A stretch of 64,000 bases of DNA, taken from positions 4,297 through 68,296 of the forward strand of contig JACIWB010000002.1 in the NCBI GenBank assembly GCA_014361245.1, in the 5' to 3' direction. Every line of letters begins with the position of its first letter. The stretch's first letter is position 1. This DNA is from Thermoplasmatales archaeon (lineage in GTDB: Archaea > Thermoplasmatota > E2 > UBA202 > JdFR-43). Position numbers and translations under genes: made by a program. Of this stretch, positions 8,229-28,679 are shown piece by piece. The notes beneath the pieces are model-generated. The model worked only from the letters and a program-made list of their open reading frames with translations. It did no database searches and was not told the DNA's origin.

Positions 8229-8546
8229 ATGGTTGATGAAGAAGATGAATTCAGGAAAATAATGAAGGAAATGGGTAAAATATTTGAGGAAGTATTTAAG
8301 GATGTTATGGAACAATTTTCTGGAGAAAAAATTTTTGAAATAAATGAAGATGATAAAAAAATTTATGTAACTGTTGAGCTAAATACAAAAGAGGAAGATA
8401 TAAAAGTTAAGGTATATAAAAATGCGATTGAAATAAGATTAAAAAATGGATGGGCAAAGAAAATTGATTTTCCATGCAAAATCAAGAAAAAAATAAAGAA
8501 AACTTTTAAAAATGGCATTCTTGATTTAGAAATAGAAAAAGCTTAG
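8229..8546 (+). CDS. small heat-shock protein (Hsp20/alpha-crystallin domain), short form
   Basis: 105 aa; core resembles sHSP alpha-crystallin domain (KIYVTVELNTKEEDIKVKVYKNAIEIRL ... GILDLEIEK). Confidence 0.45.
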   Translation: MVDEEDEFRKIMKEMGKIFEEVFKDVMEQFSGEKIFEINEDDKKIYVTVELNTKEEDIKVKVYKNAIEIRLKNGWAKKIDFPCKIKKKIKKTFKNGILDLEIEKA

Positions 8547-9829: not shown

Positions 9830-9866
9830 AACATTGCAAGTTATGAAAACATATAAATATTTTGGA

Positions 9867-9937
9867 AGGGCGGGGCGGGAATTGAACCCGCGTATGCGGA
9901 TCTGCAGTCCGCCACCCTACCACTAGGTGACCCGCCC
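9867..9937 (-). tRNA. tRNA-Cys (GCA)
   Basis: Cloverleaf folded by hand: acceptor GGGCGGG/CCCGCCC, D-stem ACCT/GGGT, anticodon stem GCGGA/TCCGC with loop CTGCAGA, T-arm GCGGG-TTCAATT-CCCGC, discriminator U73 (Cys identity). Confidence 0.85.
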
Positions 9938-9958
9938 ATTAAAAAACATGAAAGGTTT

Positions 9959-11791
9959 TTAATTTTTTCCGAAAAATTTGTTTATTTCTTCCAGCAAGTT
10001 ATCTGCTTTTTCCATTTCAATGTATTTTCTGAGCCTTATAGCTCGCTCATCCAATATGATTGCGATTCCTCTATCATTTTCCTTCCTTATAAGCCTGCCG
10101 ATTGCCTGCATTGTTTTTCTTATTGCGGGGGCTTCAAAAGCATATTTCCATCCATTCTGATTTTTATTTTCATAATATTTTTGCAGTGCTGACTGTTTTG
10201 CAGAAGGAGGAGGATATGGCAATCCAACTATCAAAACAATTTCAAGTTCCTCTGAGGGAAAATCAATTCCTTCAGATATTTTTCCTCCTATAACAGATAA
10301 AAAAACTCCTCCTGATTTTTTAAAATTTTCTATCTTATTCATTAATTCTTCCTGTCTCTCATTTCTTCCTTCAACATACAAATTTCTGCTTATATTGAGA
10401 ACATTGATAAATCTATTCATTACTGAATAAGAAGGAAAGAAAACCAGAGTATTTTTATTCACATTATTGCATATCTTCTCTATGTAGCCTGAAATTTTTT
10501 TAACCATATCATCATCAATATAATATTTCGTTGATATTCCCTTTAGATATAAAATCCTCCTATTTTCTTTTGGAAAAGGAGAAGGAAAGATTGCTTTCTC
10601 CGCCTTTATCCCAATTGAATTTATATACTCATCTAAGGGTTGCAATGTGCCCGACATATGAATTGTTGAATAAAATGAATTCAGTATTGAAGATGCTATA
10701 GATGGCTCCAAGCAGTAGGCAACTATCCTTAAATTTTCATTTTCCATTTCAATCAATTTAACCCATCTGTTATCTAAATCAATCCAGTAAAGAATAAAGT
10801 TACCTATGCTTCTTAAAAAAGAGCGAGGAAAACTATTATTCTTTTCCTTTATATCAGCAATTGCCTCACCATATCCAATCATGCCCTCCGCAATTATTTT
10901 TATCTGCTCAACAGAAAAATATTTTTTAAGCATATTTTCAAAAAAATCCCCGATTATTGCATCTCCTCCTTCAGATATTTCAAATTTCTCTCTTATCAAA
11001 ATAAAAATCTTATCCAAGATATCCATAAAATTAGAAATGTTTCTATCTCTGACATCGTATTCCTCTATCTCCTCCATTCCATTTTTTAATGAATTATATG
11101 AAAGAGATGTTGAAAGCAATTCCCTGCAAAAATCTGGCAAGTTATGGGCTTCGTCTATTATAAGTATTGTTTTTTCTGGAGGATATTGATACATGGAAAA
11201 AAATTTCTCCCTTAATATTTCATCAAAAATGTAAATATATGGTGCTATAACTGCTCTTGCTTTTTTAACCAATTCCTTATTTATCTCATATGGACATATA
11301 TTGTGAATTTTACCGTATAAAAAAATTTCCTCAGATGATATAACATTCTCAAAATCATTCTTCATTTTTAAAAAATTTTCAAAAAATATGCATCTATTAA
11401 AATCATCTTTTTTGCGCTCCATACTTCCCTTCTTCCTCCTCGCGCATATCCTCGAAAGCTCTTCATTTGCACAATTTCTGAGAGATGGAAAATTTTCAAC
11501 CAGAAGGCACATATTATTTCTACCCTGCAATCCAGTCGCTCTAATTCCCCCTTTCATCCTTTTAATTTCAATTATCGCCTGCTTTTGCTGGGAGTTTGTC
11601 CTTGTTGTATAAACCACCCCCATATCATTTTCAATTGCAAATTTAATGCAGGGCGCCAGCACGCTTATTGTTTTTCCACTCCCGGCGGGCGCCTCCATCA
11701 CGAGATTTTTTCTTCTTTTAAGGCATTCTTCAATTTTTGAAATAATTTCGAGCTGAAACTTTCTTGGGTTATATGGGAAAAAATCAATCAT
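9959..11791 (-). CDS. xpd: XPD/Rad3-family (DinG-like) 5'-3' DNA helicase with Fe-S cluster domain
   Basis: 610 aa; Walker A AGSGKT, DEAH (IIDEAHNL), four Cys in the insertion (CLL...C...C...C) typical of the XPD 4Fe-4S domain; 8-nt overlap with upstream aIF5B. Confidence 0.8.
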   Translation of the reverse strand: MIDFFPYNPRKFQLEIISKIEECLKRRKNLVMEAPAGSGKTISVLAPCIKFAIENDMGVVYTTRTNSQQKQAIIEIKRMKGGIRATGLQGRNNMCLLVENFPSLRNCANEELSRICARRKKGSMERKKDDFNRCIFFENFLKMKNDFENVISSEEIFLYGKIHNICPYEINKELVKKARAVIAPYIYIFDEILREKFFSMYQYPPEKTILIIDEAHNLPDFCRELLSTSLSYNSLKNGMEEIEEYDVRDRNISNFMDILDKIFILIREKFEISEGGDAIIGDFFENMLKKYFSVEQIKIIAEGMIGYGEAIADIKEKNNSFPRSFLRSIGNFILYWIDLDNRWVKLIEMENENLRIVAYCLEPSIASSILNSFYSTIHMSGTLQPLDEYINSIGIKAEKAIFPSPFPKENRRILYLKGISTKYYIDDDMVKKISGYIEKICNNVNKNTLVFFPSYSVMNRFINVLNISRNLYVEGRNERQEELMNKIENFKKSGGVFLSVIGGKISEGIDFPSEELEIVLIVGLPYPPPSAKQSALQKYYENKNQNGWKYAFEAPAIRKTMQAIGRLIRKENDRGIAIILDERAIRLRKYIEMEKADNLLEEINKFFGKN

Positions 11792-13502
11792 GCTTTCTCT
11801 TTATTTTTATTACTTTTTCAAGAACATCCTTTTCATCAATGCTCAAATCTTCTTCAAGCAATTTTTGAATATCATTTTCGCTTAAATCAACAAAGAGTAT
11901 TTGCTCTGGCTTTATCTGCCTTCCAACAGTTGCCCCTTCTATTGAAATTGCAACTTCCATTCCCTTTGTTGCTCTATCAAGAGATCTCTTTTCCATCTGA
12001 ATGCTTTTTATTTTTCCAATCTTTTTTCCATCTTCTCTTATTAAATGTTGCTCGGGTCTTATTTCCCCAGCAAGAACTCTTACTCCAATAATTGCTGGCT
12101 TACTCAGCCTGAAGGTGCAATTTGGAAGGAAGAGAATCATTCCTGGATATGTTATTTCCATTCTTTTTTTCTCCTCCTCTTCCTTCCTTTTATTTTCTCT
12201 CCATTTCTCAAGTTTTTCAATTAGATGATAAACAACACTATCTGTTATTATTTCCACACCCTCACTATCCTCCACTTCAGGAAGAACTTTTACATTGAAA
12301 CCAATTATTGCCCTATTTACCTCTCTTTCATTTGTTTTTGCCTCAAAAATATCCCTTTTTGATATATCTCCTATTTCAGCCTTCCTTAAAGGTATATTTT
12401 TCTCTTTAAGAATTAAGGATATTGCTTCAAGAGAGCCGAGCGCATCTGCTTTTAATACAACTCCTTCATCGGTTGTTTCAATATTTATTTTCATCTCCTC
12501 CTCTATCTTCTTCATATCTTCTTCAACATTTTTTAAAACTTTTATCGGAGCTCCAGCAAAAGCATCTTCAAGTCGCGGGGCAACTATTTTAACCCCGCAT
12601 GCTGCGGTAGCAATTTTAACTCTCCTGAACTTTTCTTCAGGAGCCCTTATTTCATCAAGTGGCTTTGGCTTAAGCAAGGCTCTTACTGTTGTAATTATTG
12701 CTCCTTTTTTTCCAGCAACTATTATTTCATCTCCTTCCTTAATTACGCCATTGTAAATTATTACATCAATAGTTGTGCCTAAACCCTTTTCTTCTTTAAC
12801 TTCAAGAACAGTTCCCTCCGCTTCTTTTTCCTCACAAATCAAATTTTCTTCAAGGAATTTTTGAGATAAGCCAATCAGAATCATTATCAGTTCGTCTATA
12901 CCTTCGCCATTTTTTGCTGAAATAGGAACAATTGCAACATTTCTCGTAAAATCCCTTATTCTGTCATATCTATCTGAAGAAAAACCCAAATCATAAATTT
13001 GCTCGACAAGCCTGTAAAATTTTTTATCAAAATCTTTTTTTGCCATTTCATTTTGTTCTTCAAGTCTTTTTGATATTACCCCTTCTTTTTTTCTCCATAA
13101 ATCAATTAAATCTATCTTATTTGCTGCTATAACAAAAGGTGTCTTGTATTTCTTAAGTATTGCAACCGCCTCTTTTGTCTGTTCCATTATTCCCTCATTT
13201 ATATCAACAACAAGAATAGCAAGGTCAGCAAGAGCTCCACCCCTTGCTCTCAAAGTTGTAAAGGCAAAATGTCCTGGTGTGTCGATAAAAAGCAAGCCAG
13301 GAATTTTAAATTCCTTTCCTTTAAGCAAATTACCACATATTTCTTTTACTGTTTCTATTGGCACTTCAGTTGCTCCTATATGCTGTGTGATTGCTCCCGC
13401 CTCCTTTGCGGCGACACAGCCGCCTCTTATGTAATCAAGGAGTGTTGTTTTTCCATGGTCAACATGTCCGAGAACTGCAACAATTGGTTGTCTGAAGTAC
13501 AT
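11784..13502 (-). CDS. infB: translation initiation factor aIF5B (IF2 homologue)
   Basis: 572 aa; G1 motif VLGHVDHGKTTLLDYIRG, DTPGH, NKID; size fits aIF5B, not aIF2-gamma. Confidence 0.85.
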   Translation of the reverse strand: MYFRQPIVAVLGHVDHGKTTLLDYIRGGCVAAKEAGAITQHIGATEVPIETVKEICGNLLKGKEFKIPGLLFIDTPGHFAFTTLRARGGALADLAILVVDINEGIMEQTKEAVAILKKYKTPFVIAANKIDLIDLWRKKEGVISKRLEEQNEMAKKDFDKKFYRLVEQIYDLGFSSDRYDRIRDFTRNVAIVPISAKNGEGIDELIMILIGLSQKFLEENLICEEKEAEGTVLEVKEEKGLGTTIDVIIYNGVIKEGDEIIVAGKKGAIITTVRALLKPKPLDEIRAPEEKFRRVKIATAACGVKIVAPRLEDAFAGAPIKVLKNVEEDMKKIEEEMKINIETTDEGVVLKADALGSLEAISLILKEKNIPLRKAEIGDISKRDIFEAKTNEREVNRAIIGFNVKVLPEVEDSEGVEIITDSVVYHLIEKLEKWRENKRKEEEEKKRMEITYPGMILFLPNCTFRLSKPAIIGVRVLAGEIRPEQHLIREDGKKIGKIKSIQMEKRSLDRATKGMEVAISIEGATVGRQIKPEQILFVDLSENDIQKLLEEDLSIDEKDVLEKVIKIKRKHD

Positions 13503-13570
13503 GAAAGAAAAATTGCAGGCAATTAAATAATTTTTGCCAAAAACATTTTTATCATTGTTAGAATACCATT

Positions 13571-14188
13571 ATGCTTGCTGTGTTTGACATGGATGGGGTA
13601 TTTATTGAAGAAAGGAGCTCATGGAAGGTAATTCATAAAAAATATGGAATAAAAAATGATGATATTGTTGAAGCATATAAAAGAAGGGAGATAGGCGATG
13701 AGGAATTTTTAAACAGAGACATTGAAAGATGGAGGGAAAGAGGAATAAGGAGGAAAGATATTGAAGAAGTTTTCAATTCAATAGAACTGACCCCTGGATG
13801 CAGGGAATGTATTGAATATTTTAATAAAGTCGGGAAAGTTGCGATAATATCAGGGGGAATTGATATTCTTGCAAAAAGAATTGCAAATTTTGGAGTAGAA
13901 TATGTTTTTGTAAATGGAATAATCTATAAAAATGAACTACCATGGAAAGCAATTTTAAATGTTCCTCTAATGGAAAAGGGGAAAATACTTGAAAAGTTAA
14001 TTGAAAAATTGGGCTTGGAAAAAGAAGATGTAATTGTTGTAGGGGATACAAAGTATGATGTTGATATGTTTAAAAGGGCTGGTTTAAAAATTGCCTTCAA
14101 TCCAACAGATGAAATAAAAAATTTTGCAGATTTTGTAATAGAAAAAAGAGATTTAAATGAATTAATTAAAATATTTGAAAAGCATTAA
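13571..14188 (+). CDS. HAD-superfamily hydrolase (phosphoserine phosphatase-like, subfamily IB)
   Basis: 205 aa; motif I FDMDGV at N-terminus; GDTKYD near C-terminus. Confidence 0.55.
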   Translation: MLAVFDMDGVFIEERSSWKVIHKKYGIKNDDIVEAYKRREIGDEEFLNRDIERWRERGIRRKDIEEVFNSIELTPGCRECIEYFNKVGKVAIISGGIDILAKRIANFGVEYVFVNGIIYKNELPWKAILNVPLMEKGKILEKLIEKLGLEKEDVIVVGDTKYDVDMFKRAGLKIAFNPTDEIKNFADFVIEKRDLNELIKIFEKH

Positions 14189-14798
14189 AAATATGCTGAC
14201 CGCACTCCTTATATTAATAATATTTGCGCTGATTTCCTTCCTTGTTTATTCAATCTTTACATATGTTTTTGAAGAAGTTGGTTTTAAATGGTGGGAAGCA
14301 AGCTTAATAGTTTTTAGCTCCCTGCTTTTTAGAGAGGTTAATATCCCTCTTTTTCAATATGAAAATTTAACCATAGCAATAAATTTAAGCGGTGCTCTCC
14401 TCCCGTTGCTGATAAGTGCCTACTTAATTTTATCAAGAAAAATATTTTTAAGAAGTTTGCCAGGAATAATAATTGTAACATTTGTTGCATACATGGTTAG
14501 CTATGCATCGCATGAAGGGATTGTATCGCCTTTTCCATACTGGCTTTTGCCGCCCATTTCTTCAGCTCTCTACAGCTTGGTCGCTGGCTATAAAAATAAA
14601 AGGAAGGTTGCAAGCATTGCCTATTCATGTGGGACATTTGGGGCGATTATAGGCGCGGATTTCCTCCATTTTAAAGAATTTTTGGAAATGAATTCGAGCA
14701 GACAAATTGTTGCAAGCATAGGAGGGGCAGCGATTCTTGATATGGTATTTCTTACTGGAATAATTGCGGTTATAATAGCTGCCTTATTTTATGAATGA
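14175..14798 (+). CDS. hypothetical integral membrane protein
   Basis: 207 aa with ~5 predicted TM helices; overlaps HAD gene by 14 nt. Confidence 0.4.
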   Translation: MKSIKNMLTALLILIIFALISFLVYSIFTYVFEEVGFKWWEASLIVFSSLLFREVNIPLFQYENLTIAINLSGALLPLLISAYLILSRKIFLRSLPGIIIVTFVAYMVSYASHEGIVSPFPYWLLPPISSALYSLVAGYKNKRKVASIAYSCGTFGAIIGADFLHFKEFLEMNSSRQIVASIGGAAILDMVFLTGIIAVIIAALFYE

Positions 14799-14871
14799 GA
14801 AAAATTAAGCGGCATAATTTGGTGGAAAGAGTTAAACTGCAACGCATTTTTTACTCCCCAGGACGATATGT

Positions 14872-15324
14872 TCATTCAACCGTTTTTTCATGCGATAGCT
14901 TTTCGAATATTTTCAAAAGCTCTATCTCGAGTTTTTTAATGTAGCTTCCAAATTCCCCACTAAAAACCTTGTTTTTTAGTATTTTTATCCCGCCCGCAGC
15001 ATAACTCTCAGCAATTGAATAGACCTCTTTTGGATTGAGTAAAACTTGTAAATCCCCCCTTTTATCAGCGATTGCAACAGCCTTTATAAGAGCTTTTTCC
15101 GCTGGATTTAAATATGCTACTCTATCATAATCCTTTGTTTTTTCTCTTTCTAAAGAGATCTTTTTTCTTTCACGATAGCCGATAGCCATTGCCATTAGAA
15201 ACACTGCTTTTCTTGTAGAATTTATAAATGGGCTTTCTTTTTCGTTGAGTAGGGTGTTGAAATCATCTAAGTCAGTAGCTCTAACCCGTATTATTAACGG
15301 TTCTTTGGGTCTATCCTTATTCAT
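14872..15324 (-). CDS. hypothetical 150-aa protein, last gene of the candidate defense operon (in the DndE position relative to a DndD-like ATPase)
   Basis: 8-nt overlap with the upstream ATPase gene (translational coupling); no recognisable catalytic motif; basic and helical. Confidence 0.4.
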   Translation of the reverse strand: MNKDRPKEPLIIRVRATDLDDFNTLLNEKESPFINSTRKAVFLMAMAIGYRERKKISLEREKTKDYDRVAYLNPAEKALIKAVAIADKRGDLQVLLNPKEVYSIAESYAAGGIKILKNKVFSGEFGSYIKKLEIELLKIFEKLSHEKTVE

Positions 15325-17338
15325 AGGGTTTCACCTCCGCCTCGCTTCCAGAAGTATATTCTTTGAAATTTATTTTGTAATCCTTCCAAACAACATCTGA
15401 TAATGCATCCCTTACATGGGATGTGTACTCGGTACTGGTTACCAATAATATCACCTGAGTATTTTTGAAATGCTTTGGTATCGTTTTGGCAATATTCTCT
15501 CTAGGTTCTCTATCAATTCTTGCTAAGGGTGTGTCTATAATTATAGGAGCGTCTATACCTGACACCGTATTTAATGCCGCTATAAATGCGAGTGCCAATG
15601 ATTGTCTTTCTCCGGCACTTAATGTTCCTAGCGCAGGTCTACCTTGCTGGTCAGTTACTGAAAAGGTGTAGTTATCATCTATTTTTACATCACTATATGT
15701 TATCGCTTTTGGGATTATAGCGAAAAACTCTTCTTTAGTTTTTCTTTCTATCTCCTCTCTGGTTTCCCTCATGATTTCTTCTGTAATCCTTTGTGCAGCA
15801 TTTAAAGCATATTCACAAAATGAGTTTATTTTTCTTAATTCACTTAATTTTTTCTCTTTTTTAAGTTCTTCATCCAAATCTATCTTAATAGCCTCTATCG
15901 TTGTTTCGGTTTGCCTGATTTGGGCGCACAATTCCCCTATCTTTTCATCTGCCTTCTTTATTTCGTTGTTATAATCCTCGTATCTCTCCTCCAACATTTT
16001 TATCTTTTCAATATTCACACCTTTAATTTCGTCCTCTATATTTTTCAATCTATCTCTTTTCCTATTAAGATCTTCCTCCATCTCCTTAATTTTCTCGGTG
16101 TATTTTTTAAGATTCTTATCAAAACCAATCATTTTTTCTTGGTGTCTTCTCAATTCGTTGTGAAGCTCTATAATTTCCTCTGTTATATTAGTTATCTCGT
16201 CGCACTCCTCTAAAAGTTTCTTTATTCTTAATCTATAATCATTATCCTTAGATATATCCATACCACATATACAGACACCCTCTTTTAACAATTTTTCTAA
16301 AAAATTTCTTTTATAATCTGGCGGGATCTCTCCAGCCTCCTTTCTCTTAGATATAGGTTTTAGTGATTCATCGATTGCATCGCACAGGAATATTGTTGGC
16401 GCAACACTGATAAGATAAGCGGCTTTATTTTTTTCCTCCTCAGCAAATTCATTATCAATCCTTTTTAGATCTTTTTCAATACTCTCCCTCTCTTCTGCTA
16501 ATCTCTTAATATCTTTAGGAGAAATGCCTATTAATTCTTTTTGAATCTCTTTTCTATCTGCTTCAGCTTCTTTTCTATGTGCCTTTAGTTTTTCTAAATC
16601 TTCTTCTAATTTTTTCTTTGAAGCTTCAAAACACGCCTTTTTTTCTTCTAGATCTTTTATTTTAGGCGTTAGATCCTTAGATAAGGCAAAAAACTTTTTC
16701 TTCACCTCTTCTAAATGAGAAATCACTTTTTTCAACAAATCTAGTTGTGCGATTCTAAATACGGCTTTTTTTATTTCTTCTCCAGCCTCTTCTCTAAAGT
16801 AGTCATCCAATCTCTCCCCATCGAAAAAGAAGTATTCATGAATTTCTTTAGGAAAAATCCTTTGAATCGCATTAGTTGGGTCACGGAAGTAGCCCATATC
16901 TTTCCCTATCTGTACAAGTATCTCAAGTTTTGAACCATCTGATTGATTTGAGAAATATCGATCCTTGATTATTTCGATTTTATTTTCATCTAATTTTTTC
17001 ACCTTAGCGGATCTTTTAATTTTATATTTTTTACTTTTATCAATATTAGTTAGGCCTATCTCGACTTCTATATCAGCGATTTCATTTTCTCCTACCTGGG
17101 ATAGAGAGAGTGTGTTAAGGAGTGGCAACCCTTCATATTTTTTAGATAGGTAAAATTCCTCGCCATAAAGGCACCAAGTAATCGCGTTTAGAAAATTAGT
17201 TTTTCCTGCACCTGTTGTCCCTTCGATAACTATAACATTTTTTCCAGGTTCCACGTACATATTATCAATTACAACATCTTTATACTGCCTATAATTTTTT
17301 AATTTAATATAATCAATGAACATTTCTACACCTCCCAC
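15317..17338 (-). CDS. SMC/Rad50-like ABC ATPase with long coiled coil, DndD-like (AAA_23-type N-terminus)
   Basis: 673 aa; Walker A GTTGAGKT; FFFDGERL motif; ~350-aa E/K-rich coiled coil; signature LSAGERQ; Walker B/D-loop IIIDTPLARID, where the catalytic Glu is replaced by Thr as in DndD-family proteins; no Rad50 CxxC zinc hook and no Mre11 partner. Confidence 0.6.
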   Translation of the reverse strand: MGGVEMFIDYIKLKNYRQYKDVVIDNMYVEPGKNVIVIEGTTGAGKTNFLNAITWCLYGEEFYLSKKYEGLPLLNTLSLSQVGENEIADIEVEIGLTNIDKSKKYKIKRSAKVKKLDENKIEIIKDRYFSNQSDGSKLEILVQIGKDMGYFRDPTNAIQRIFPKEIHEYFFFDGERLDDYFREEAGEEIKKAVFRIAQLDLLKKVISHLEEVKKKFFALSKDLTPKIKDLEEKKACFEASKKKLEEDLEKLKAHRKEAEADRKEIQKELIGISPKDIKRLAEERESIEKDLKRIDNEFAEEEKNKAAYLISVAPTIFLCDAIDESLKPISKRKEAGEIPPDYKRNFLEKLLKEGVCICGMDISKDNDYRLRIKKLLEECDEITNITEEIIELHNELRRHQEKMIGFDKNLKKYTEKIKEMEEDLNRKRDRLKNIEDEIKGVNIEKIKMLEERYEDYNNEIKKADEKIGELCAQIRQTETTIEAIKIDLDEELKKEKKLSELRKINSFCEYALNAAQRITEEIMRETREEIERKTKEEFFAIIPKAITYSDVKIDDNYTFSVTDQQGRPALGTLSAGERQSLALAFIAALNTVSGIDAPIIIDTPLARIDREPRENIAKTIPKHFKNTQVILLVTSTEYTSHVRDALSDVVWKDYKINFKEYTSGSEAEVKPYE

Positions 17339-17532
17339 TCTTTTGCGTATTTTTCAACAAGTTTCATATATTCATCTTGCACCCCTCGTGGGCGACTTTC
17401 GTATATATAATTGAACTCCAGCATAATTACTTCCCACAAAAATTTCTTAATTATATCTGGGTAGTCGCCTTTATCTATTTTACTCTTTATTCTTTCACTA
17501 ACATCTTCTTCTATTTTCTTCTCTTTTCTCAT
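17326..17532 (-). CDS. hypothetical 68-aa protein inside the candidate defense operon
   Basis: Overlaps the ATPase start by 13 nt and lies 6 nt after the helicase gene; helical and charged. Confidence 0.35.
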   Translation of the reverse strand: MRKEKKIEEDVSERIKSKIDKGDYPDIIKKFLWEVIMLEFNYIYESRPRGVQDEYMKLVEKYAKEWEV

Positions 17533-17538
17533 TTTCCT

Positions 17539-19677
17539 TTACACCCCTTCCCATAATTTTTTTTCGATTTTATAAATATTATTGAGGCACTCTAAACTAT
17601 TGACCGCGATTTCAGCGAATTCTTTATACCTGATTAATTCTTTATAAAATATCTTTCTTTCCAAATCTTCTATTGAGGAGTTATTTATCCATGAGAGTGC
17701 AGGTACCACTATAACATCGTATATTATTGCTTTTTCTTTTCCGGGAAAACGTCTTAGAACTCTTCCTCTCCTCTGAATCCATTCTCGGGGGTTACTACTA
17801 CTCATTAGGATTATTGCAGTAGTAGCGGCTGGTACATCAACTCCTTCATCTAAGCATCGGATAGCCACTAAAACTTGGTATGTTCCTTCCGCAAATTTTT
17901 GAAGTAAAAATTCTCTCTCTGATAACCCACCATACTCCTCGCTAGGGGTAATCTTTTCTCTTAGAGTAAATTTATGTTGGGTGATATTCAATTCATTCAA
18001 AATATTTTGTACATGATTTATTTGTTCTGGCGAACAATAAACCAAACAATGTTTAATATTCTTACCCATTTCTTCTATTATTTTTTTAAAAGTATCGTAC
18101 TTTTTAATTGCGTTTTTTATAATCTCCTGTCGTTTAACGCACAATAACGAAAACCATTTCTTACGCTCGTTATCTGTTTTTGAGCTATAGTATGATTTAG
18201 CGATTTTTTTTGTGACACTCTCGTATCTTTCCAATTCTTCCTTATTTAATTCCACAAAATAAGGTTTATATTCGTAGGGTACCAGATAAGTTTTCCCTGT
18301 AGCTGGATTTAGTGTATTAACAGCATCTTTTAACGAAAATTCGAACACAGTGCCACCGAAATAATTGAAAAGTGTTTCAGTACCTTCCAAATCAAACCAT
18401 CGCTTAGGTGTTGCGCTTAATCCTAGCCTAAAATGGTAGAGATCCAGCAAACCTCTTTTCCTTTTTGGCGCTCCAATTCCATGAACTTCATCTACAATCA
18501 AAAACAATTTTTCATTTGCAGATCGAATTATTTTGATAAAATTATCTGTATGAAAAGTGGCGTGTGTTGTTAGCACAATTAAATTATTTTCAATCCCGAT
18601 TTTTATATCTATTAGGGAATCAGAGAGTTTATCTTTCCAATCAGGATTGCTACTGTCTGCAACAATATATTCACAGGTTAAACCAAATTCATCTATATCA
18701 TTAATCCACTGTCTTATCAAATGATTAGATGGGCAAGTTATAACTGCTATTGTTTTATTATAATTTTCCATTACTTTTTTAAGGCATCCTAAAGCAGCAA
18801 AAGTTTTCCCTAAACCTGTAGCCATCTCAAAAATTCCTTTCATGTCATTATTAAACCATTTCTGAATCGCATCCTTTTGATGTGGGTAAAACTCTATTTC
18901 CTTCTTCTTTTCTCCTTTCTTCAGATACCATCTTTGGAGGTAAACCTCATCGATGTTTTTTGGTGCTATTTCGATTAATTTCCTTTTAACTGCTTCGGGC
19001 ACCTCCATAACTATTATTCGGGAAGCTTTATTATTCCAGAATCTTTCAAATTTTAATATGTCGGCCTCTACATATTCTTTTTCCTCTTTTATCCATTTTC
19101 TAAAAACTTTAAATTCCTCAATATTTTTTAGCCATCCAGACGCAGATTCGTTTATAGATCCACTAAAGGTAAGAATATCTCCCACTATATCTTTTAAAAT
19201 TCCTATCTTTTGATGAAACACACCTTGTAATTGAATTTCATCGAAACTCAGGGGTTGTCCATCTTCATCTGAAACTATGGCAACTTTTATTTCTAATCTT
19301 TTATTCGCAATCATCCATCCGAGCGCAAAAATATGATCTCTTATAAATTCATCCTCTAATTTTTCTAGTTCTTCAACCATTCTCCTCTCTACATAGTTTT
19401 GAGGATTTTCAGTAGCATCTTTAATAATTTTAATGTCTTTTTCATCTAATTTTGGTGATACCAATAATTTCATTGTGCCATTGTTTTTTATTAACCCAAG
19501 AATTCCTCGTGCCGCGATAGCTAAACTAGTCGATGAAAAAAATCCAGCAATCCTGTCATACTCTATACACTCTGATAACGCCGGGATATAAAAATCGTTT
19601 AAAATATCATCAGTATCTGATGAATATGTCTTTTTTAATGACAAATCTCTAAACCCCATATTTGCACCAATTTTCAA
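17539..19677 (-). CDS. fusion protein: N-terminal phospholipase-D-family (HKD) nuclease domain + SF2 helicase (ResIII/DEAH-type)
   Basis: 712 aa; HKD motif HQKIGILKD-x6-FSGSINESASGW (aa ~155-182); helicase motifs Q/I (PHQKDAI, EMATGLGKT), II (VDEVH), III (GLSATP), VI (QRRGRVLR). Confidence 0.7.
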   Translation of the reverse strand: MKIGANMGFRDLSLKKTYSSDTDDILNDFYIPALSECIEYDRIAGFFSSTSLAIAARGILGLIKNNGTMKLLVSPKLDEKDIKIIKDATENPQNYVERRMVEELEKLEDEFIRDHIFALGWMIANKRLEIKVAIVSDEDGQPLSFDEIQLQGVFHQKIGILKDIVGDILTFSGSINESASGWLKNIEEFKVFRKWIKEEKEYVEADILKFERFWNNKASRIIVMEVPEAVKRKLIEIAPKNIDEVYLQRWYLKKGEKKKEIEFYPHQKDAIQKWFNNDMKGIFEMATGLGKTFAALGCLKKVMENYNKTIAVITCPSNHLIRQWINDIDEFGLTCEYIVADSSNPDWKDKLSDSLIDIKIGIENNLIVLTTHATFHTDNFIKIIRSANEKLFLIVDEVHGIGAPKRKRGLLDLYHFRLGLSATPKRWFDLEGTETLFNYFGGTVFEFSLKDAVNTLNPATGKTYLVPYEYKPYFVELNKEELERYESVTKKIAKSYYSSKTDNERKKWFSLLCVKRQEIIKNAIKKYDTFKKIIEEMGKNIKHCLVYCSPEQINHVQNILNELNITQHKFTLREKITPSEEYGGLSEREFLLQKFAEGTYQVLVAIRCLDEGVDVPAATTAIILMSSSNPREWIQRRGRVLRRFPGKEKAIIYDVIVVPALSWINNSSIEDLERKIFYKELIRYKEFAEIAVNSLECLNNIYKIEKKLWEGV

Positions 19678-19865
19678 TCAACTACTATTATCTAATATAA
19701 TAGAATTTTAAAAATTTTGTGCCTATCGCTTATAACTATCTCTATAGAGCGAATGAAAATCCTCTTTATCAACCGTTGCCCGATCTTCAAAAATTATTTA
19801 ACTTTTTGCGATGCCGAATATCAGCAATGAATGAGAAAAATTATAAGGCAAGGAAATATAACTTT

Positions 19866-21155
19866 ATGCTTCGCACCCATTATATAAATGAAATAAGCGA
19901 AAAGGAACATGAAAAAAGGGTTTGCATTGCTGGATGGGTTGAAGAAATAAGAAATCTTGGAGGAATAGCATTCATAATTTTAAGGGATAGAAGTGGGAAA
20001 GCACAAATCACAGCAATAAAAAAGGAAAATGCCGAACTTTTTAAGGCAATTACCTCGCTGAACAGGGAGAGTGTGATATCAGCATGCGGAATATGCAAGA
20101 GGAATGAAAAAGTAATGAATGGATGGGAAATTTTGCTTGAGGAATTTAAATTAATCAGCGAGGCATCAACACCTCTTCCAATGGGAGTAATAGATAAGGT
20201 TAATGTTGATTTCGATACCCGTCTTGATAACAGGATAATAGATTTAAGAAAAGATGATGTTAAAGCAATTTTTATGATAAGAAATTCATTTATAAAGTAT
20301 GCTTCAGAATTTTTAAGAAAAAAAGGTTTTATGGAAGTTCATACTCCAAAAATTTCATCTTCATCATCTGAAGGAGGAACAGAAGTCTTCAGAATAGATT
20401 ATTTTGATAGAGATGCATATCTTGTGCAATCTCCCCAACTATACAAACAAATGTTAATGGCAACTGGTTTTGATAGAGTTTTTGAAATAGCATGGTATTT
20501 CAGGGCGGAGGAGCATGACACAACCCGCCATCTTAATGAATCAACTGCTGTTGATATAGAAATGGCATTCATCGATAGCGAGGAAGATGTGATGAGAATT
20601 GCAGAGGAAATGACAGATTATTCAATAAATAAAATAGTTGGTGAGAATAGCAAGGAATTGAGCATTCTTAACGCTGAAATAGAATTCCCATCTCCTCCAT
20701 ATCCAAGAATAAGGTATGATGAAGTTGTTGAAATACTTAGTAAGGAAATAAATTTTTCATGGGGAGAAGATTTGGGGGCGGATGAGGAAAATATTTTATA
20801 CAAAAATTTGGGATATGATATTTATTTCATAAAGGATTTCCCTCTATCATCAAAACCATTTTATGCAATGCCATCTGGGAAATATGCAAGAGCATTTGAT
20901 CTCGAGCTAAGGGGAATGGAAATTGCATCTGGCGCACAGCGCATTCATGATTATGAACTGCTTACTAAAAGAATGATCGAGCTTGGAATGAATCTAAAAA
21001 ATTTCGAAGAATATCTGAAAGCATTTAAATATGGAATGCCTACCCATGGCGGATTTGGTTATGGAATTGAGCGCTTCCTAATGAGCTTTCTTAAATTGAA
21101 AAATATAAGAGAATGCATACTTTTTCCAAGAGATAGATACAGAATTAAACCTTAA
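19866..21155 (+). CDS. asnS: asparaginyl-tRNA synthetase (class II)
   Basis: Strong motif-level similarity to archaeal AsnRS (FRAEEHDTTRHLNEST, SWGEDLGADEE, GGFGYGIERFLM with ER not DR). ORF track starts at 19719 but the homology-supported start is MLRTHYINE at 19866 (alternative 19827). Confidence 0.75.
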   Translation: MLRTHYINEISEKEHEKRVCIAGWVEEIRNLGGIAFIILRDRSGKAQITAIKKENAELFKAITSLNRESVISACGICKRNEKVMNGWEILLEEFKLISEASTPLPMGVIDKVNVDFDTRLDNRIIDLRKDDVKAIFMIRNSFIKYASEFLRKKGFMEVHTPKISSSSSEGGTEVFRIDYFDRDAYLVQSPQLYKQMLMATGFDRVFEIAWYFRAEEHDTTRHLNESTAVDIEMAFIDSEEDVMRIAEEMTDYSINKIVGENSKELSILNAEIEFPSPPYPRIRYDEVVEILSKEINFSWGEDLGADEENILYKNLGYDIYFIKDFPLSSKPFYAMPSGKYARAFDLELRGMEIASGAQRIHDYELLTKRMIELGMNLKNFEEYLKAFKYGMPTHGGFGYGIERFLMSFLKLKNIRECILFPRDRYRIKP

Positions 21156-21315
21156 GGCATAAATAATTTCCTCATTTGGAGAAGTATAAAATTTCTTATT
21201 CCATACAAACCCTGAAATTTGTGATATGCATTTTATATGCCTGTTTTCTCTCATCTTCAAATCTTATTAAAATCTCATTCCAACTAAAATTGATCTAACA
21301 TATAAATTTTTAAAG

Positions 21316-21424
21316 TCCCGGCGGCCGGATTTGAACCAGCGACTTGCGGATTTCCGCGGCGGTGGGTTATAACCCAAGAGATGCAACTACAGTCCGCCAC
21401 TCTACCAGTCTGAGTTACGCCGGG
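21316..21424 (-). tRNA. tRNA-Tyr (GTA) with ~35-nt intron at the canonical 37/38 position
   Basis: Hand fold: acceptor CCCGGCG/CGCCGGG with C1-G72 and A73 (archaeal Tyr identity), D-stem ACTC/GAGT, anticodon stem GCGGA...TCCGC, loop CUGUAG|intron|A, 5-nt variable loop, T-arm GCTGG-TTCAAAT-CCGGC. Confidence 0.75.
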
Positions 21425-21437
21425 CAATAATATATAA

Positions 21438-21452
21438 TACATTTTTTTAAAT
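21438..21452 (-). promoter_or_regulatory. putative TATA box for tRNA-Tyr (TTTAAAAAAATG on minus strand)
   Basis: AT-rich TATA-like element centred ~20-27 nt upstream of the tRNA 5' end; overlaps the 3' end of the DP2 ORF. Confidence 0.2.
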
Positions 21453-21458
21453 TTTTTG

Positions 21459-24400
21459 TTAGAAGAAATCGGTGAGGGTTTTATCTTTTCCATTTCTAAA
21501 GAGTGATTCAACAAATTTTTCTGAAAGCAAGATGCGCTGTTTTGTATAATTTGGTATATCAAATTCCTCTGCCAGTTTCTTTATAACTCCTAAATATTTC
21601 TTTATAGAACTTTCATGAACTGTTAGTAATAGCGTGCTTCCGCATTTTCCACATTTTCCAGTTAAAGTGATGCGGCGATATTTTGTATTACAATTTGTGC
21701 ATCTGAACTGCTGTTTTGTGAAAGCTTTTAAATTTCCTGTTAAATCCGGAAGGAAATGTTTTTGAATTATTTTTGTAACAACATCTACTTCATCAACAGC
21801 CCTTATCTTTATTGCCAGATTTATCTGTGCCATTACCTTATCCTCCATGTTTTCATATAGCTTATATGAAGATGTTTTTGGAGCATTTGCTATGTTGCTT
21901 GTATCATGAGTAAATCCAAAAAATTTATACTCTTTTTCACTCCCAATTCTATTTGCAACTAAATCCATTTCCTTTTCAAGTTCTTTTGAATGAGCGTAAA
22001 TATGAGTTTTTCTGTAGAATAGCAGAGGATAGGAACTTAAGACATCCAAACTCAATGCTTCCTTATCTATTTCACTTGGAGAAATTCTTGTTGCTATAAC
22101 AAGTGGTAAGTCCATTTTTCCCCCTCTTTTTTCGGGTATATATTCTTTTGAGAAATTTATTAATACATCGGTAAGAAGCATCAATGAATCCTCATCACCA
22201 TCGCAATTCCTCCTTTTTGCTGCATGGAAAAATGGATGGGCACAGCATACATTTAAGTCAATAAATCCAATTATTCTTCCAATGATTCCCGCTGATGTAT
22301 GGGGGGATAAACCAACTACTAAGTGTCCTATTAAATCATCCAGACTATTTGCATTGTAATATGCATCAATTTCATAAATTTTTAAAAGCATTTCATCAAT
22401 ATATTTAGCAACTCTGAGAAAGTATTCTCCACATTTTTTTGAGGGTATAACATCCTGTGGCATCAGTTCAACAATTTGATTATCATTTACTAATTCATTT
22501 CCTTTATAATCATATTTATATCCTAACTCTCTAAGTTTTTCTACAGAAACACCTATTTCATATGGTTTAAAATGAGTTAATGGCATATTTGTCATATCGT
22601 ATCTTATAGTTCCATCTTTAAAAACATAAACATCATATTTTGCTCTTATAATTCCTTTTTCTATGCATTCTGGAGTTTTACTTGAAGAGGATAAACCAAT
22701 AACTCCCTTAACCTTCTTCATCTGTGTATTTATTCTTTTTTCGGATTTACTCAATTCCTCCTTAACATCTATTTCAAAATTTTTTATATTTCCCGTAAAA
22801 TATGTATGCCCGCCGCACTCACATTTTGTTTTATAACCTATTCTTCCACAATTTTCACATCTCCTTTCTCCCAATTCAGCAATTATTTTCCCTGTTGTAT
22901 TTAAAATCCTTTCCTTTCCCCCCTTCTCAATTCCTACAGGGAAGAGAACATGCGGGGCGGGCGACATTTTCCTTTCGGCGGATTTCTCGGGTCTTCCCAT
23001 TCTTGCTCCTATTCTGTGAATTGCTTTAGGAATTATTTTTATTCCAAGAATTTCCTGAACAGCATCAATTGCCTCCTTTGAACTATTTTTAACTTCAAAA
23101 ATTTTTCCATCAATCAATTCAAATCCGCAGCACTTGATAATTACATCTGCATATTTCTCTACAATATAGCCATCTCTTTCAAGATGAGTGACTCCAAGAT
23201 TTAATAAAATTTCCTTTAATCTTTTATCTCTTTCAAGATATAACTTTCCATCATATCTTGCTTTTTTTATAAAATTTCTCAAAATCTGAAAATCATCCTT
23301 ACTTATATCATGCCAGAAAAGATTATAGGAAGGATGGAGCGGGATTCCATATTCTCTCGATAATTCAATTGCTTTTTCAAAAGATATGCTTTCAAAACTC
23401 TCTATTCCATGCTTTATTTTTACCTCTTCAATATTTGTTTTTTCCTCAAGTTCTTTAATCCACCATTCATAGCAAAAACTTGCGGGAGGAAGAATTGAAT
23501 TGTTCTCAAAAAATTCTCCAAAAGGTATTAAAATTTCTCCCAAATCAATTATTTCCCTAACATTTTTGGCAATTTTAACCGCTTCCTCAAGAGAATTCAC
23601 CTGTATAAAATCCCCGTTATCAAGCAAAACCATCGGTCCTTCGATACTGTCGCAAGGAGTTGCAATCGTTCCCTTCCCCGGTCTTTCGGTCTTAAGCTGT
23701 GTCCCAACCGCAATAAATCCATCTAGCAAATACATGGTTGCAGGATGCATTGCTGTTGCCCCCAGCCCGCAACTTCTCGCCCTCCCATATCTGAGCCTGA
23801 AGCCACCCTTGCGAGATGGATGACTTATTACAGGGCGCCCACCAATCAGATCTTCAATATATCTTTTAGATGGTTCTATTTCCCTGTTCTCATCCACTTC
23901 TTTAGAAAAGTTTTTCAGGAAATTCCATCCTTCAAGATTTAATCTTGTAACATGTTTCATAAGCTTTGGTGCTTTAAGGCAGAGTCCTTCGGCTATTACA
24001 AGGCATGCCCCCCCTCTTATTCTATTTGTTTTTATTCTTGGCAAATCTCTTTTACCCATTACCTCATCCTTTTCAGTTGGCTCGCCATTTATACAGATAG
24101 GGCAATTTCTTATGATTAGTTCTATCTCCTCTGAGGATGGTAAATATTGCAAATGTGTTATTCTATCATAAAGAGGGATTTCTTCCTTATATCTTTCAAC
24201 TTCATCATCAGTTGGCTTATATCTATCTACTCCTAATTTTCTTCTGACAACATCAGCAATTAATACACTCATTGCTTCTCCTGTTCCTCCGGCAGAGCGA
24301 ATAGGTCCAGAAAAATAAAGGTCAACATATCTACTTCCATCAAAATTTTTTCCAATCTCAACAGATGATATTCCTTCTATGGGAGCAACTAAAACACCTT

Positions 24401-24707
24401 CTGTTAATATTGCGAGTCCGGTCCTTACCGCTTGCTCAATTATTTCTGCGTGACTTCCATTCATATTTTCGGCAATCTCAGTTGCTATCTGAATAGCAGT
24501 TTCCTCTCTTCCTTTTTCTTTCAAATATTTTCTTATTTTATGAGCTATCCCACTTGGACCAACAAGCTCTTCAACCCTGTCAGCAAGGTCCTTTGCAAAA
24601 GATATCTCTACTTCTTTTTTTGGATCATAACCTTTTTTCCTTGCTAAATTCGCTATTTCATAACATTCTCTTGCCTTATTTTCTATCCATCTAAAATATT
24701 CTTCCAC
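21459..24707 (-). CDS. polC: DNA polymerase II (PolD) large subunit DP2
   Basis: 1082 aa; DP2-specific Cys clusters/zinc fingers (CENCGRIGYKTKCECGG; CTNCNTKYRR...CGKCGS); intein-free length; DP1 is not adjacent. Confidence 0.85.
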   Translation of the reverse strand: MEEYFRWIENKARECYEIANLARKKGYDPKKEVEISFAKDLADRVEELVGPSGIAHKIRKYLKEKGREETAIQIATEIAENMNGSHAEIIEQAVRTGLAILTEGVLVAPIEGISSVEIGKNFDGSRYVDLYFSGPIRSAGGTGEAMSVLIADVVRRKLGVDRYKPTDDEVERYKEEIPLYDRITHLQYLPSSEEIELIIRNCPICINGEPTEKDEVMGKRDLPRIKTNRIRGGACLVIAEGLCLKAPKLMKHVTRLNLEGWNFLKNFSKEVDENREIEPSKRYIEDLIGGRPVISHPSRKGGFRLRYGRARSCGLGATAMHPATMYLLDGFIAVGTQLKTERPGKGTIATPCDSIEGPMVLLDNGDFIQVNSLEEAVKIAKNVREIIDLGEILIPFGEFFENNSILPPASFCYEWWIKELEEKTNIEEVKIKHGIESFESISFEKAIELSREYGIPLHPSYNLFWHDISKDDFQILRNFIKKARYDGKLYLERDKRLKEILLNLGVTHLERDGYIVEKYADVIIKCCGFELIDGKIFEVKNSSKEAIDAVQEILGIKIIPKAIHRIGARMGRPEKSAERKMSPAPHVLFPVGIEKGGKERILNTTGKIIAELGERRCENCGRIGYKTKCECGGHTYFTGNIKNFEIDVKEELSKSEKRINTQMKKVKGVIGLSSSSKTPECIEKGIIRAKYDVYVFKDGTIRYDMTNMPLTHFKPYEIGVSVEKLRELGYKYDYKGNELVNDNQIVELMPQDVIPSKKCGEYFLRVAKYIDEMLLKIYEIDAYYNANSLDDLIGHLVVGLSPHTSAGIIGRIIGFIDLNVCCAHPFFHAAKRRNCDGDEDSLMLLTDVLINFSKEYIPEKRGGKMDLPLVIATRISPSEIDKEALSLDVLSSYPLLFYRKTHIYAHSKELEKEMDLVANRIGSEKEYKFFGFTHDTSNIANAPKTSSYKLYENMEDKVMAQINLAIKIRAVDEVDVVTKIIQKHFLPDLTGNLKAFTKQQFRCTNCNTKYRRITLTGKCGKCGSTLLLTVHESSIKKYLGVIKKLAEEFDIPNYTKQRILLSEKFVESLFRNGKDKTLTDFF

Positions 24708-24788
24708 AAAAAGAATAAAGAAGACATAAATTTAGTTTTTTATTTTTCAAATCGATATCTTCATATATATTTACAAATTAACCTTATA

Positions 24789-25097
24789 ATGGATGAAGAA
24801 GTTGAGCAACGAATACCCTTGCCAAAAAAAAATGAAAAAGAAATGTTTGCTATTGTTGAACAGCACATGGGAGGGGGTAGATTAAAGATTGTTTGCGAGG
24901 ACGGAAAATCAAGAATGGCAAGAATACCTGGAAAAATAAAGAAAAGAAAGTGGATAAAAACAGGGGATTTAATCATTGTCAAGGCATGGGATTTTCAGGA
25001 TGAAAAAGCGGATGTAATATATCGCTACACCCCGACCCAGATAGTAAATCTTGATAGAAAAAATCTTATTCCCGATACCCTAAAAGGATTTTTATGA
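24789..25097 (+). CDS. eif1a: translation initiation factor aIF1A
   Basis: 102 aa; S1-like OB-fold sequence typical of eIF1A (GGGRLKIVCEDGKSRMARIPGKIKKRKWIKTGDLIIV). Confidence 0.85.
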   Translation: MDEEVEQRIPLPKKNEKEMFAIVEQHMGGGRLKIVCEDGKSRMARIPGKIKKRKWIKTGDLIIVKAWDFQDEKADVIYRYTPTQIVNLDRKNLIPDTLKGFL

Positions 25098-25792
25098 AAA
25101 AAATTGAAGAGCTAAGGAAAACAGAAGGAGAAGTTTTTGAAAAAACAACCCTCGATGCCCTTGCAAAATTGATGAATGACGGTTTTATTGATTATATTGA
25201 TTTTCCAATTTCAACTGGAAAGGAGGGAAATGTTTTTAGAGGGGTATGTGGTGAAAGATTAATAGCAATCAAGATTTATAGGATAAATACTGCAACATTC
25301 AGAAGCATCTCAAAATATCTTATGTATGACCCACCTGAAAAAATTAAATTTGACAGAAGAAACATAATTTTTGCTTGGGCTAAAAAAGAATTTGGCAATC
25401 TTAAAAAATTGTATGAGGCTGGCGTGAGGGTGCCCGAACCAATAGCGATTGAGGAAAATGTAATTGTAATGGAGTATATAGGGAGCAAGGCGAAGCCAGC
25501 CCCATTGCTTAAAGATGCAAATATAAAAAATGCAGAGAAAATTTTTGAGAAAATAAAAAAATATCTCAAGCTTATGTATCAAAAAGCAAAACTTGTTCAT
25601 GCCGATTTTTCTGAATATAATGTTCTAATTTATAGAAATAACCCAGTTATAATAGATGTGGGACAAACTGTTAAAAGAGAAAATCCGATGGCAATGGAAT
25701 TTTTAAGGAGAGATGTATATAATATAGTAAAATTTTTTAAAAAATTCATTAATATAGAAGAGGAAGATACAATCTCTTACATAATTGGGTGA
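25094..25792 (+). CDS. RIO-type serine/threonine protein kinase (Rio1-like)
   Basis: 232 aa; RIO motifs (STGKEGNVF, LVHADFSEYNVLIY); conserved archaeal aIF1A-Rio-KH gene order. Confidence 0.8.
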   Translation: MKKIEELRKTEGEVFEKTTLDALAKLMNDGFIDYIDFPISTGKEGNVFRGVCGERLIAIKIYRINTATFRSISKYLMYDPPEKIKFDRRNIIFAWAKKEFGNLKKLYEAGVRVPEPIAIEENVIVMEYIGSKAKPAPLLKDANIKNAEKIFEKIKKYLKLMYQKAKLVHADFSEYNVLIYRNNPVIIDVGQTVKRENPMAMEFLRRDVYNIVKFFKKFINIEEEDTISYIIG

Positions 25793-26322
25793 TGAAGATG
25801 AAATATGTTAAAATTCCTATTGATAGGGTGGGTGTTTTAATTGGCAAGAACGGAGAAACAAAAAGCAGCATAGAGAGTTATGGATTAAAGCTTGAGGTTA
25901 ACTCGAGCATAGGAGAAGTTAAAATAGAAAGTGAGGATAAGATAAGGGAGATGGAAGCAGAAAATGTTGTTGTTGCAATTGGAAGAGGATTTTCTCCAGA
26001 GAAAGCAATTCTTCTGTTTAATGAGGACTACTATCTTGAAATAATTGATATAAGAGATTGGGTTGGGAAAAAGGAAAATCATATAAGAAGGCTTGCTGGC
26101 AGAGTGATTGGAAAAAATGGAAGGGCAAGAGAAATTATAGAAGAATTAAGTGGAGCATATGTGAGCATTTATGGACACACAATTGGAATAATAGGGAAAA
26201 TCGAGAATTTGCAGATTGCAAAAAAAGCAGTAGAGATGTTGCTTGAAGGAGCAAATCATTCAACAGTTTATAGATTTCTTGAAGAAGAAAATAGAAGAAG
26301 AAAGATGATGGAAATGCTCTGA
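25789..26322 (+). CDS. KH-domain RNA-binding protein (Dim2/Krr1-like)
   Basis: 177 aa; two KH GxxG loops (IGKNGETK, IGKNGRAR). Confidence 0.7.
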   Translation: MMKMKYVKIPIDRVGVLIGKNGETKSSIESYGLKLEVNSSIGEVKIESEDKIREMEAENVVVAIGRGFSPEKAILLFNEDYYLEIIDIRDWVGKKENHIRRLAGRVIGKNGRAREIIEELSGAYVSIYGHTIGIIGKIENLQIAKKAVEMLLEGANHSTVYRFLEEENRRRKMMEML

Positions 26323-26358
26323 ATAGATATATTTTTTAATTATTAAAGGTATTCAATT

Positions 26359-28663: not shown

Positions 28664-28679
28664 TAAAGGATATAACTTT

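Follow-up and report, generated by a model that had tools for sequence, protein, structure and literature searches.

A probable PbeABCD cassette encoding a phospholipase D–helicase fusion protein on a mobile insertion in a Thermoplasmatales genome

Gene content of the pbe locus

We analyzed a 64,000-nucleotide (nt) stretch of a Thermoplasmatales archaeon genome (assembly GCA_014361245.1, contig JACIWB010000002.1, positions 4,297 to 68,296; hereafter the window). One of its open reading frames (ORFs) had been predicted to encode a single-HKD phospholipase D (PLD) nuclease domain fused to a superfamily 2 (SF2) helicase, in a layout known from restriction-like immunity proteins. The fusion ORF exists, with all of its motifs at the nucleotide positions first reported for them, and the immunity reading was upheld. 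The original prediction had missed the operon context, in which the gene is a named one, pbeA, and the first of the four PbeABCD genes. Its product is a new member of the known PbeA family; the PbeABCD system is likewise known and has also been named the CxC-ABC-ATPase/DndE-anchored system. Based on the model matches of PbeA and PbeC, the sizes and order of PbeB and PbeD, and the recurrence of the arrangement in relatives, pbeA is very probably the effector gene of a complete PbeABCD cassette.

The ORF listed at this position spans 17539..19677 (minus strand), and the deposited PbeA record, MBC7128258.1, begins at its TTG codon at 19677. Alignment with 37 homologues places the start at ATG 19659, which has a GGTG ribosome-binding site 6 nt on its 5' side; pbeA (17539..19659, minus strand) then encodes 706 amino acids (aa) with the N-terminus MGFRDLSLKK. 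The amino acid numbers reported earlier were counted from the TTG and are therefore each too high by six. The first listed starts of pbeA (19677, TTG), pbeC (17338, GTG), and the aspartyl-tRNA synthetase (AspRS) gene (19719, GTG) are probably all too far upstream, and ATG 19659, ATG 17323, and ATG 19827 are favoured on the basis of the homologue alignment, ribosome-binding sites, and the repeat/empty-site junction described below. The PADLOC model for PbeA (PDLC02707, 672 positions) is matched over its full length by aa 3-691 at E 2.1e-240. In the databases searched, the best relative other than PbeA itself shows 67% identity. A scan of the GTDB species genomes with PbeA gave one true relative only, in a bacterial metagenome-assembled genome (MAG) at 55%, which implies that the genome of the window, or its pbeA gene, lies outside the species representatives. 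The deposited annotation names MBC7128258.1 a 'DEAD/DEAH box helicase family protein' and gives PbeB and PbeD as 'hypothetical'; across the four genes, the only names used are 'DEAD/DEAH box helicase' and 'hypothetical protein'.

The second gene, pbeB (17326..17532, minus strand), begins 6 nt after the pbeA stop codon and encodes an acidic protein of 68 aa (isoelectric point (pI) 5.5). PbeB is 37% identical (3e-10) to its positional counterpart in the related contig L009, and an ORF of 59-68 aa occupies the same position in every related cassette but that of L013, in which none was called. No hidden Markov model of Pfam, PADLOC, or NCBIfam matches PbeB, as is expected for a fast-evolving protein.

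The third gene, pbeC (15317..17323, minus strand), encodes a coiled-coil ABC ATPase of 668 aa from an ATG preceded by a GGAGGTG ribosome-binding site. PbeC matches the PADLOC PbeC model PDLC02723 (2.8e-128) and the Pfam families SMC_N and AAA_23, and matches the DndD model TIGR03185 at 2.3e-61 with 208 bits, which is under the cutoff of 245.85. On the minus strand, the gene encodes the Walker A motif GTTGAGKT (aa 35-42) at 17198-17221, the ABC signature LSAGE at 15608-15622, and the Walker B motif IIIDTP at 15527-15544. A CxC hook, C351-I-C353 (16265-16273, minus strand), is found midway between Walker A and the signature/Walker B region (aa 568-599). This hook lies halfway along the coiled coil. 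Its motifs mark PbeC as a relative of Rad50 and DndD, in the sister clade of DndD, and as the ABC ATPase type with a CxC zinc hook described in PMC10853773.

The fourth gene, pbeD (14872..15324, minus strand), overlaps the pbeC stop codon by 8 nt and encodes a basic protein of 150 aa (pI 9.4). PbeD matches TIGR04062 (dnd_assoc_4) at 2.4e-9 and has a precomputed PF27807 match, and a search of its profile against the PDB sequences returned nothing. The AlphaFold2 model of PbeD, with a predicted local distance difference test score (pLDDT) of 91, contains two strand-helix-helix units, and the best PDB folds are those of DndE (4lrv, 5wtu, and 7x4e; probability 0.95-0.98, target-normalised template modelling (TM) score 0.6-0.67). 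As modelled, PbeD is a DndE-like protein with two ribbon-helix-helix repeats in tandem and a predicted DNA binder.

All four genes are co-oriented, with gaps or overlaps of at most 8 nt. The order of PbeA, a small ORF, an ABC ATPase, and a PF27807 protein is shared with 12 related contigs; one other, L008, breaks off within the ATPase gene.

The N-terminal domain of PbeA

A PLD-fold domain with a single HKD motif makes up aa 1 to about 240 of PbeA (18940..19659, minus strand). The signature, H149-Q-K151-x5-D157-x9-G167-S-I-N170-E171, is located at 19147..19215 (minus strand), with HQKIGILKD (H149, K151, and D157) at nt 19189-19215 and GSINE (aa 167-171) at nt 19147-19161. The catalytic residues had been recognized correctly (H149, K151, D157, and the GSxN are present and conserved), while the spacing H-x-K-x4-D given for them is in fact x5. 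The full pattern in PbeA is HxK-x5-D-x9-GSxN, compared with the canonical x4/x6. When an HKD regular expression was run against all six frames of the window, the PbeA site was the sole match.

A search of 1.84 billion cluster representatives with PbeA aa 1-250 gave 3,577 clusters at E<=1e-3. In a set of 151 sequences consisting of the window protein and the best 150 of the 3,577 clusters (38-61% identity), H149, K151, and D157 were retained in 150 sequences, G167 in all 151, and S168, N170, and E171 in 149. Among 38 close homologues, the signature does not vary. Conservation of the HKD residues among homologues had been set beforehand as the test of the PLD assignment, and with retention in 149-151 of the 151 sequences the assignment stands. 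As read in the sequence, the motif exceeds chance.

Sequence searches were divided on the assignment, the Pfam PLDc models and a profile search of PDB sequences having failed to detect the domain. NCBIfam NF042964, described as 'phospholipase D-like domain-containing anti-phage protein', matches aa 11-323 at 8.6e-25, and the PADLOC model 'PLD_Helicase' matches aa 10-329 at 6.7e-11. The AlphaFold2 model of aa 1-250 has a mean pLDDT of 87 and a predicted TM score of 0.86. Foldseek searches with this model showed that the PDB matches at E<=1e-3 belong exclusively to the PLD superfamily. SauUSI (7clg) is the top match (E 1.1e-4, probability 1.0), and the others include human FAM83 (4urj), Zucchini (4gem), phosphatidylserine synthase (8yr5/3hsi), and an engineered phospholipase D (8ctq). 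Somewhat weaker matches are Streptomyces PLD and BfiI (2c1l), at E ~2e-3 to 8e-3 (BfiI 8e-3). The TM scores are modest (0.33-0.45), as expected for a domain with helices inserted at aa 73-118 and added at its C-terminal end. In the model, aa 1-250 have the PLD alpha/beta fold, and it is the predicted structure that settles the question of the fold; the proposed N-terminal PLD domain is thus supported by NF042964, the AlphaFold2/Foldseek fold, and HKD conservation.

Nuc, BfiI, Zucchini, and SauUSI are single-HKD nucleases whose active site is formed across a homodimer. By likeness to these enzymes, the earlier proposal that PbeA would be active as a dimer is reasonable.

Two further observations concern this domain. 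Only the loop following GSxN (aa 169-179, window 19125-19155) falls below pLDDT 50 in the PLD model, despite strong conservation of its residues, and dimerisation or DNA binding may be needed to order it. Four cluster representatives (P0220, P0254, P0278, and P0284; 1,212-1,490 aa) have the same N-terminal PLD domain in proteins about twice as long, which suggests that they are PbeA fused to further domains.

The helicase half of PbeA

The C-terminal half contains an XPB/Rad25-like SF2 helicase core (aa 253-651; 17707..18903, minus strand). The motifs on this strand are YPHQ (18877-18888), Walker A ATGLGKT (aa 280-286; 18802-18822), motif II DEVH (aa 390-393; 18481-18492), SAT (aa 415-417; 18409-18417), and QRRGR (aa 629-633; 17761-17775). 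A CLDEGVD motif is also present, the Q/I/II/III/V/VI set is complete, and the core comprises two RecA-like domains. The complete set of helicase motifs first proposed for this half is thereby borne out, also by Pfam (ResIII 1.6e-22, Helicase_C 7e-13) and by alignment to XPB. Among solved structures, the closest relatives by sequence are archaeal XPB/Rad25 (6p66 and 2fwr; 2e-23 over aa 254-650), followed by Hef, SauUSI, and LlaGI. Pfam and PDB sequence searches detected no domain in the region of ~55 aa between the helicase core and the C-terminus at aa 706.

NCBIfam TIGR04095 (dnd_restrict_1, 'DNA phosphorothioation system restriction enzyme') matches aa 253-701 at 7.4e-132 and covers model positions 5-448 of 451. 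The score of 440.5 bits lies below the cutoff of 600, and by the NCBI rule PbeA is classed as a related subfamily and not as a TIGR04095 equivalog. The NCBIfam XPB equivalog gives 42 bits on PbeA against a cutoff of 610.

Insertion of the cassette between housekeeping genes

The four genes are carried on an inserted block of 5,036 bp (14808..19843), which is made up of pbeDCBA, 64 nt downstream of pbeD, a 167-nt upstream region, and one copy of a direct repeat. The repeat is a perfect 17-bp one, ATGAATGAGAAAAATTA, and both copies touch neighbouring genes. The left copy (14791..14807) holds the stop codon of a DUF1614 gene, and the right copy (19827..19843) holds the probable true ATG start of AspRS, ATG 19827 being in frame with the ORF listed from GTG 19719. 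ATGAATGAGAAAAATTA is the only exact 17-mer repeated within 14001-20500, and an exact 17-mer repeat arose in 4 of 300 shuffles of this 6.5-kb region. The upstream region (19660..19826) is A+T-rich, separates the divergent pbeA and AspRS genes, and is presumed from its sequence to contain promoters.

An empty site was identified in metagenome contig Ga0272448_1010418 (L021), which is 96.0% identical to window 7173-14807 and whose last 24 nt (L021:7617-7640) match window 19827-19850 at 100%. In that strain, DUF1614 thus runs straight into AspRS, and the window has 5,036 extra bases. The contig extends only 7 nt past the repeat; all seven agree with the AspRS side, and three of them are mismatched at the left junction. 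The inserted block encodes no recombinase gene, and the G+C content of the cassette (32-36%) is the same as that of its surroundings, so that composition gives no sign of foreign origin. Taken together, the insertion and the empty site, as read from the aligned sequences, show the accessory and mobile character of the cassette.

Based on Pfam, the cassette is flanked on one side by the genes for the PolD large subunit and AspRS, and on the other by those for DUF1614, a HAD hydrolase, aIF5B, XPD, and a class I aminoacyl-tRNA synthetase (TyrRS/TrpRS family). The other window ORFs that were scanned are also housekeeping genes. This neighbourhood, together with archaeal XPB/Rad25 (2e-23) as the closest solved helicases, could suggest that PbeA is a housekeeping repair enzyme that pairs an XPB-type helicase with a nuclease, as in archaeal XPB-Bax1. 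Such a role is hardly credible, given that the gene lies in a 5-kb insertion missing from a 96%-identical strain, forms an operon with pbeB, pbeC, and pbeD, and encodes a protein far below the XPB equivalog cutoff (42 bits vs 610). Moreover, its relatives are found in defence neighbourhoods with DISARM DrmE, BrxL, HEPN/NTase, and restriction-modification genes. An XPB-Bax1-like repair helicase was rejected on this genomic context.

Scans for tandem repeats and tRNA genes revealed no CRISPR array and no tRNA at the borders of the insertion. Relatives of window 21205-34727 (~86% nt identity; L003-L006, from ~13448) have Cas6 and CRISPR-Cas genes directly after the PolD gene, where the window has AspRS; L003 and L005 have a type III-A system, and L004 and L006 one of type I. 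Synteny breaks at ~21205, and the neighbourhood seems to be a variable defence spot. Elsewhere in the window, two ORFs (51719-53449, plus strand, 576 aa; 4521-4925, minus strand, 134 aa) gave no Pfam match at the thresholds used, and a short, imperfect, pyrimidine-rich tandem repeat with periods of 21-33 nt lies at 42071-42187, within overlapping ORFs at 42045-42584.

Proposed function of the cassette

By analogy to Nuc, BfiI, Zucchini, and SauUSI, a single phosphodiesterase site would be assembled from the HKD halves of two PbeA chains. PbeC and PbeD would scan DNA and decide between self and foreign, and the XPB-like motor of PbeA would then translocate on the foreign DNA at the expense of ATP. 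Either the PLD site would nick or cut this DNA, or the stalled complex would block replication. PbeB may be a regulator or an adaptor.

The related system of Haloterrigena jeotgali, the only one for which protection against viruses is known, has been studied experimentally. PbeABCD together with dndCDEA lowered plaquing of the virus SNJ1 about 10^4-fold, and all four pbe genes were needed (PMC6459918). No DNA cleavage was visible: on Southern blots in Natrinema, SNJ1 DNA was intact 6 h after infection and replication was halted (PMC6459918). A later re-annotation made PbeA a fusion of an HKD endoDNase to an SF2 helicase, placed PbeC with the CxC ABC ATPases, and counted PbeD among the DndE cognates (PMC10853773). 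The Aravind group argued there that an HKD DNase implies cleavage, possibly as nicking or as cleavage of self DNA unseen by blot (PMC10853773).

The two studies bear on whether PbeA cuts at all. It could instead be a non-cutting motor, in which the PLD-like domain serves in dimerisation or in DNA/phosphate binding and viral replication is arrested sterically, the latter having been put forward in the original experimental work (PMC6459918). The intact SNJ1 DNA with halted replication agrees with such a blocker, as do the non-canonical HKD spacing and the low confidence at which the loop of aa 169-179 is modelled. However, retention of the catalytic residues in 149-151 of 151 sequences at 38-61% identity is hard to explain structurally, and the argument of the Aravind group also speaks for cleavage; we consider a non-cutting PbeA unlikely. 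HKD conservation favours a catalytic role, as far as sequences can tell, and cannot separate nicking, double-strand cleavage, and cleavage of self DNA.

Several results weigh against a complete PbeABCD cassette with a PLD nuclease as its effector. PbeB and PbeD match no PADLOC model. Among the Pfam searches proposed as a check of the original prediction, those with ResIII and Helicase_C succeeded and that with PLDc_2 failed, the PLDc/PLDc_2 models giving no match to PbeA even at E<=1; a precomputed PF13091 match is found in one of the 120 homologues listed (P0028). A profile of 24 N-terminal domains searched against all PDB sequences found no PLD protein and gave only noise (polyphosphate kinase 2, E 0.5). 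The HKD spacing is non-canonical, and every NCBIfam match is under its curated equivalog cutoff. Finally, Pfam searches of the scanned ORFs and motif searches identified no dndA/dndC and no DNA methylase gene in the 64-kb window. Six-frame motif searches for PAPS-reductase/DndC and for N6, N4, and C5 methylases gave only chance tetrapeptides within housekeeping genes.

Systems of this kind often have a linked modification module (dndCDEA or a cytosine methylase) but do not require it. In the terminology of Xiong et al., the window cassette is 'solitary', as are 58% of PbeAC pairs (PMC6459918). Because no modification gene lies in the window, the cassette would either depend on marking encoded at another site of the genome or function in the absence of a mark. 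The cassette could also be an inert passenger that needs phosphorothioate-marked DNA in a region with no dnd genes. This would fit the loss of protection by PbeABCD when phosphorothioation was abolished (PMC6459918), the solitary state of 58% of PbeAC pairs, and the failure of Pfam searches of the scanned ORFs, motif searches, and tblastn to reveal a dndA/dndC, methylase, or radical SAM partner in the window. Against this, the four reading frames are intact with all catalytic motifs preserved, and the subclade L018-L020 (67% identity) keeps the partner-free four-gene form, which suggests selection on that form. In addition, the window covers 64 kb of the genome, part of its ORFs were scanned, and dnd genes may sit elsewhere. 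An inert cassette therefore appears improbable, and we favour a functional PbeABCD system with PbeA as its effector.

Radical SAM genes beside related cassettes

Among relatives with PbeA proteins of 53-65% identity, a homologue of the B12-binding type of radical SAM protein (376-480 aa) is found directly beside the cassette in all ten contexts that extend past it. In eight of these, the gene lies downstream of pbeD in the same orientation, and in seven it directly follows or overlaps pbeD. In the remaining two, the radical SAM gene lies upstream of pbeA as a member of a divergent pair. The genes are located at L001:12463-13725, L007:14701-15966, L010:12617-13954, L011:14699-15955, L012:11639-12769, L013:12475-13740, L015:5008-6318, L017:5602-6939, L009:6926-9813, and L014:1953-4828. 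The CxxxCxxC cluster motif is intact in 10 of 12 radical SAM neighbours. None is assigned to a PADLOC family, save for a weak PDC-M51A match of one. In L012, a DndB gene intervenes between pbeD and the radical SAM gene; this DndB-family gene (PF14072, L012:10277-11638) directly follows pbeD, and a type IIG-like N6 methylase is found at the end of the same contig.

The window and its closest subclade (L018-L020, 67% identity) are without the radical SAM gene, and tblastn searches of the window with the 12 radical SAM neighbours gave nothing below E 0.03. In the PbeABCD literature searched, 'radical SAM' is used for DndC only, and no mention of the neighbour was found in PMC6459918 or PMC10853773. 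The neighbour is a lead and not a result, and might be new. It is possible, though doubtful, that the window cassette and its closest subclade represent a stripped-down, self-mobile form, in which PbeC and PbeD would recognise foreign DNA directly with no linked marking enzyme, and that the neighbouring clade uses the B12-type radical SAM enzyme to mark or process DNA. If true, this would add a radical-SAM-based self-marking chemistry to the family, and the Pbe core would work independently of modification.

The fusion of a PLD domain to a helicase, together with its three partners, was described in 2018-2019, re-analysed in 2024, and is detected by PADLOC, and the gene itself matters little. 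What the locus adds is a complete PbeABCD in a Thermoplasmatales genome and a clean before/after picture of cassette movement, in which a 5,036-bp block with a 17-bp duplication encodes no recombinase. The almost complete retention of the HKD residues is relevant to the dispute over DNA cutting by PbeABCD, and of all leads only the radical SAM neighbour of the relatives might be new.

Comparison with known systems

SauUSI acts as a single protein and has a target-recognition domain for modified cytosine at its C-terminus. This ATP-dependent type IV restriction enzyme from Staphylococcus aureus (7clg) resembles PbeA in having an N-terminal single-HKD PLD domain followed by an SF2 helicase. The sequence match is in helicase motifs V-VI (5.5e-6), and the PLD domains share ~14% identity. 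In contrast to SauUSI, PbeA ends ~55 aa after the helicase with no target-recognition domain detected, and has three partner proteins. Nuc, BfiI (2c1l), and Zucchini (4gem) also have one HKD per chain and the same fold, whereas these nucleases are without a motor and PbeA differs by its x5/x9 spacing and by the helical insert of ~45 aa (aa 73-118).

The helicase core is closest by sequence to archaeal XPB/Rad25 (6p66 and 2fwr), with which PbeA shares the DEVH form of motif II. Unlike PbeA, XPB is not fused to a PLD domain and works with a nuclease, Bax1, that is a protein of its own. PbeA further differs in scoring far below the XPB equivalog cutoff and in being encoded on an accessory insertion. 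DndFGH and the type I/III R subunits resemble PbeA in coupling ATP-driven translocation to a nuclease for the discrimination of self and foreign DNA, but their nuclease is of the PD-(D/E)xK type and that of PbeA is a PLD domain, and there is no homology to DndF, DndG, or DndH. In addition, the 64-kb window yielded no cognate methylase or specificity subunit for PbeA.

The PbeABCD system of H. jeotgali differs from the locus described here in that dndCDEA adjoin it, with none adjoining here, and in that the present host is a Thermoplasmatales MAG and not a haloarchaeon. PbeA of H. jeotgali A29 (PMC6459918), the HKD-SF2 protein of PMC10853773, has the same domain order of PLD/HKD, ResIII, and helicase C. 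The two systems also share the gene order, the CxC hook of PbeC, the DndE fold of PbeD, and proteins of closely similar size (PbeB, 68 aa here and 66 aa in H. jeotgali; PbeD, 150 and 152 aa; PMC6459918).

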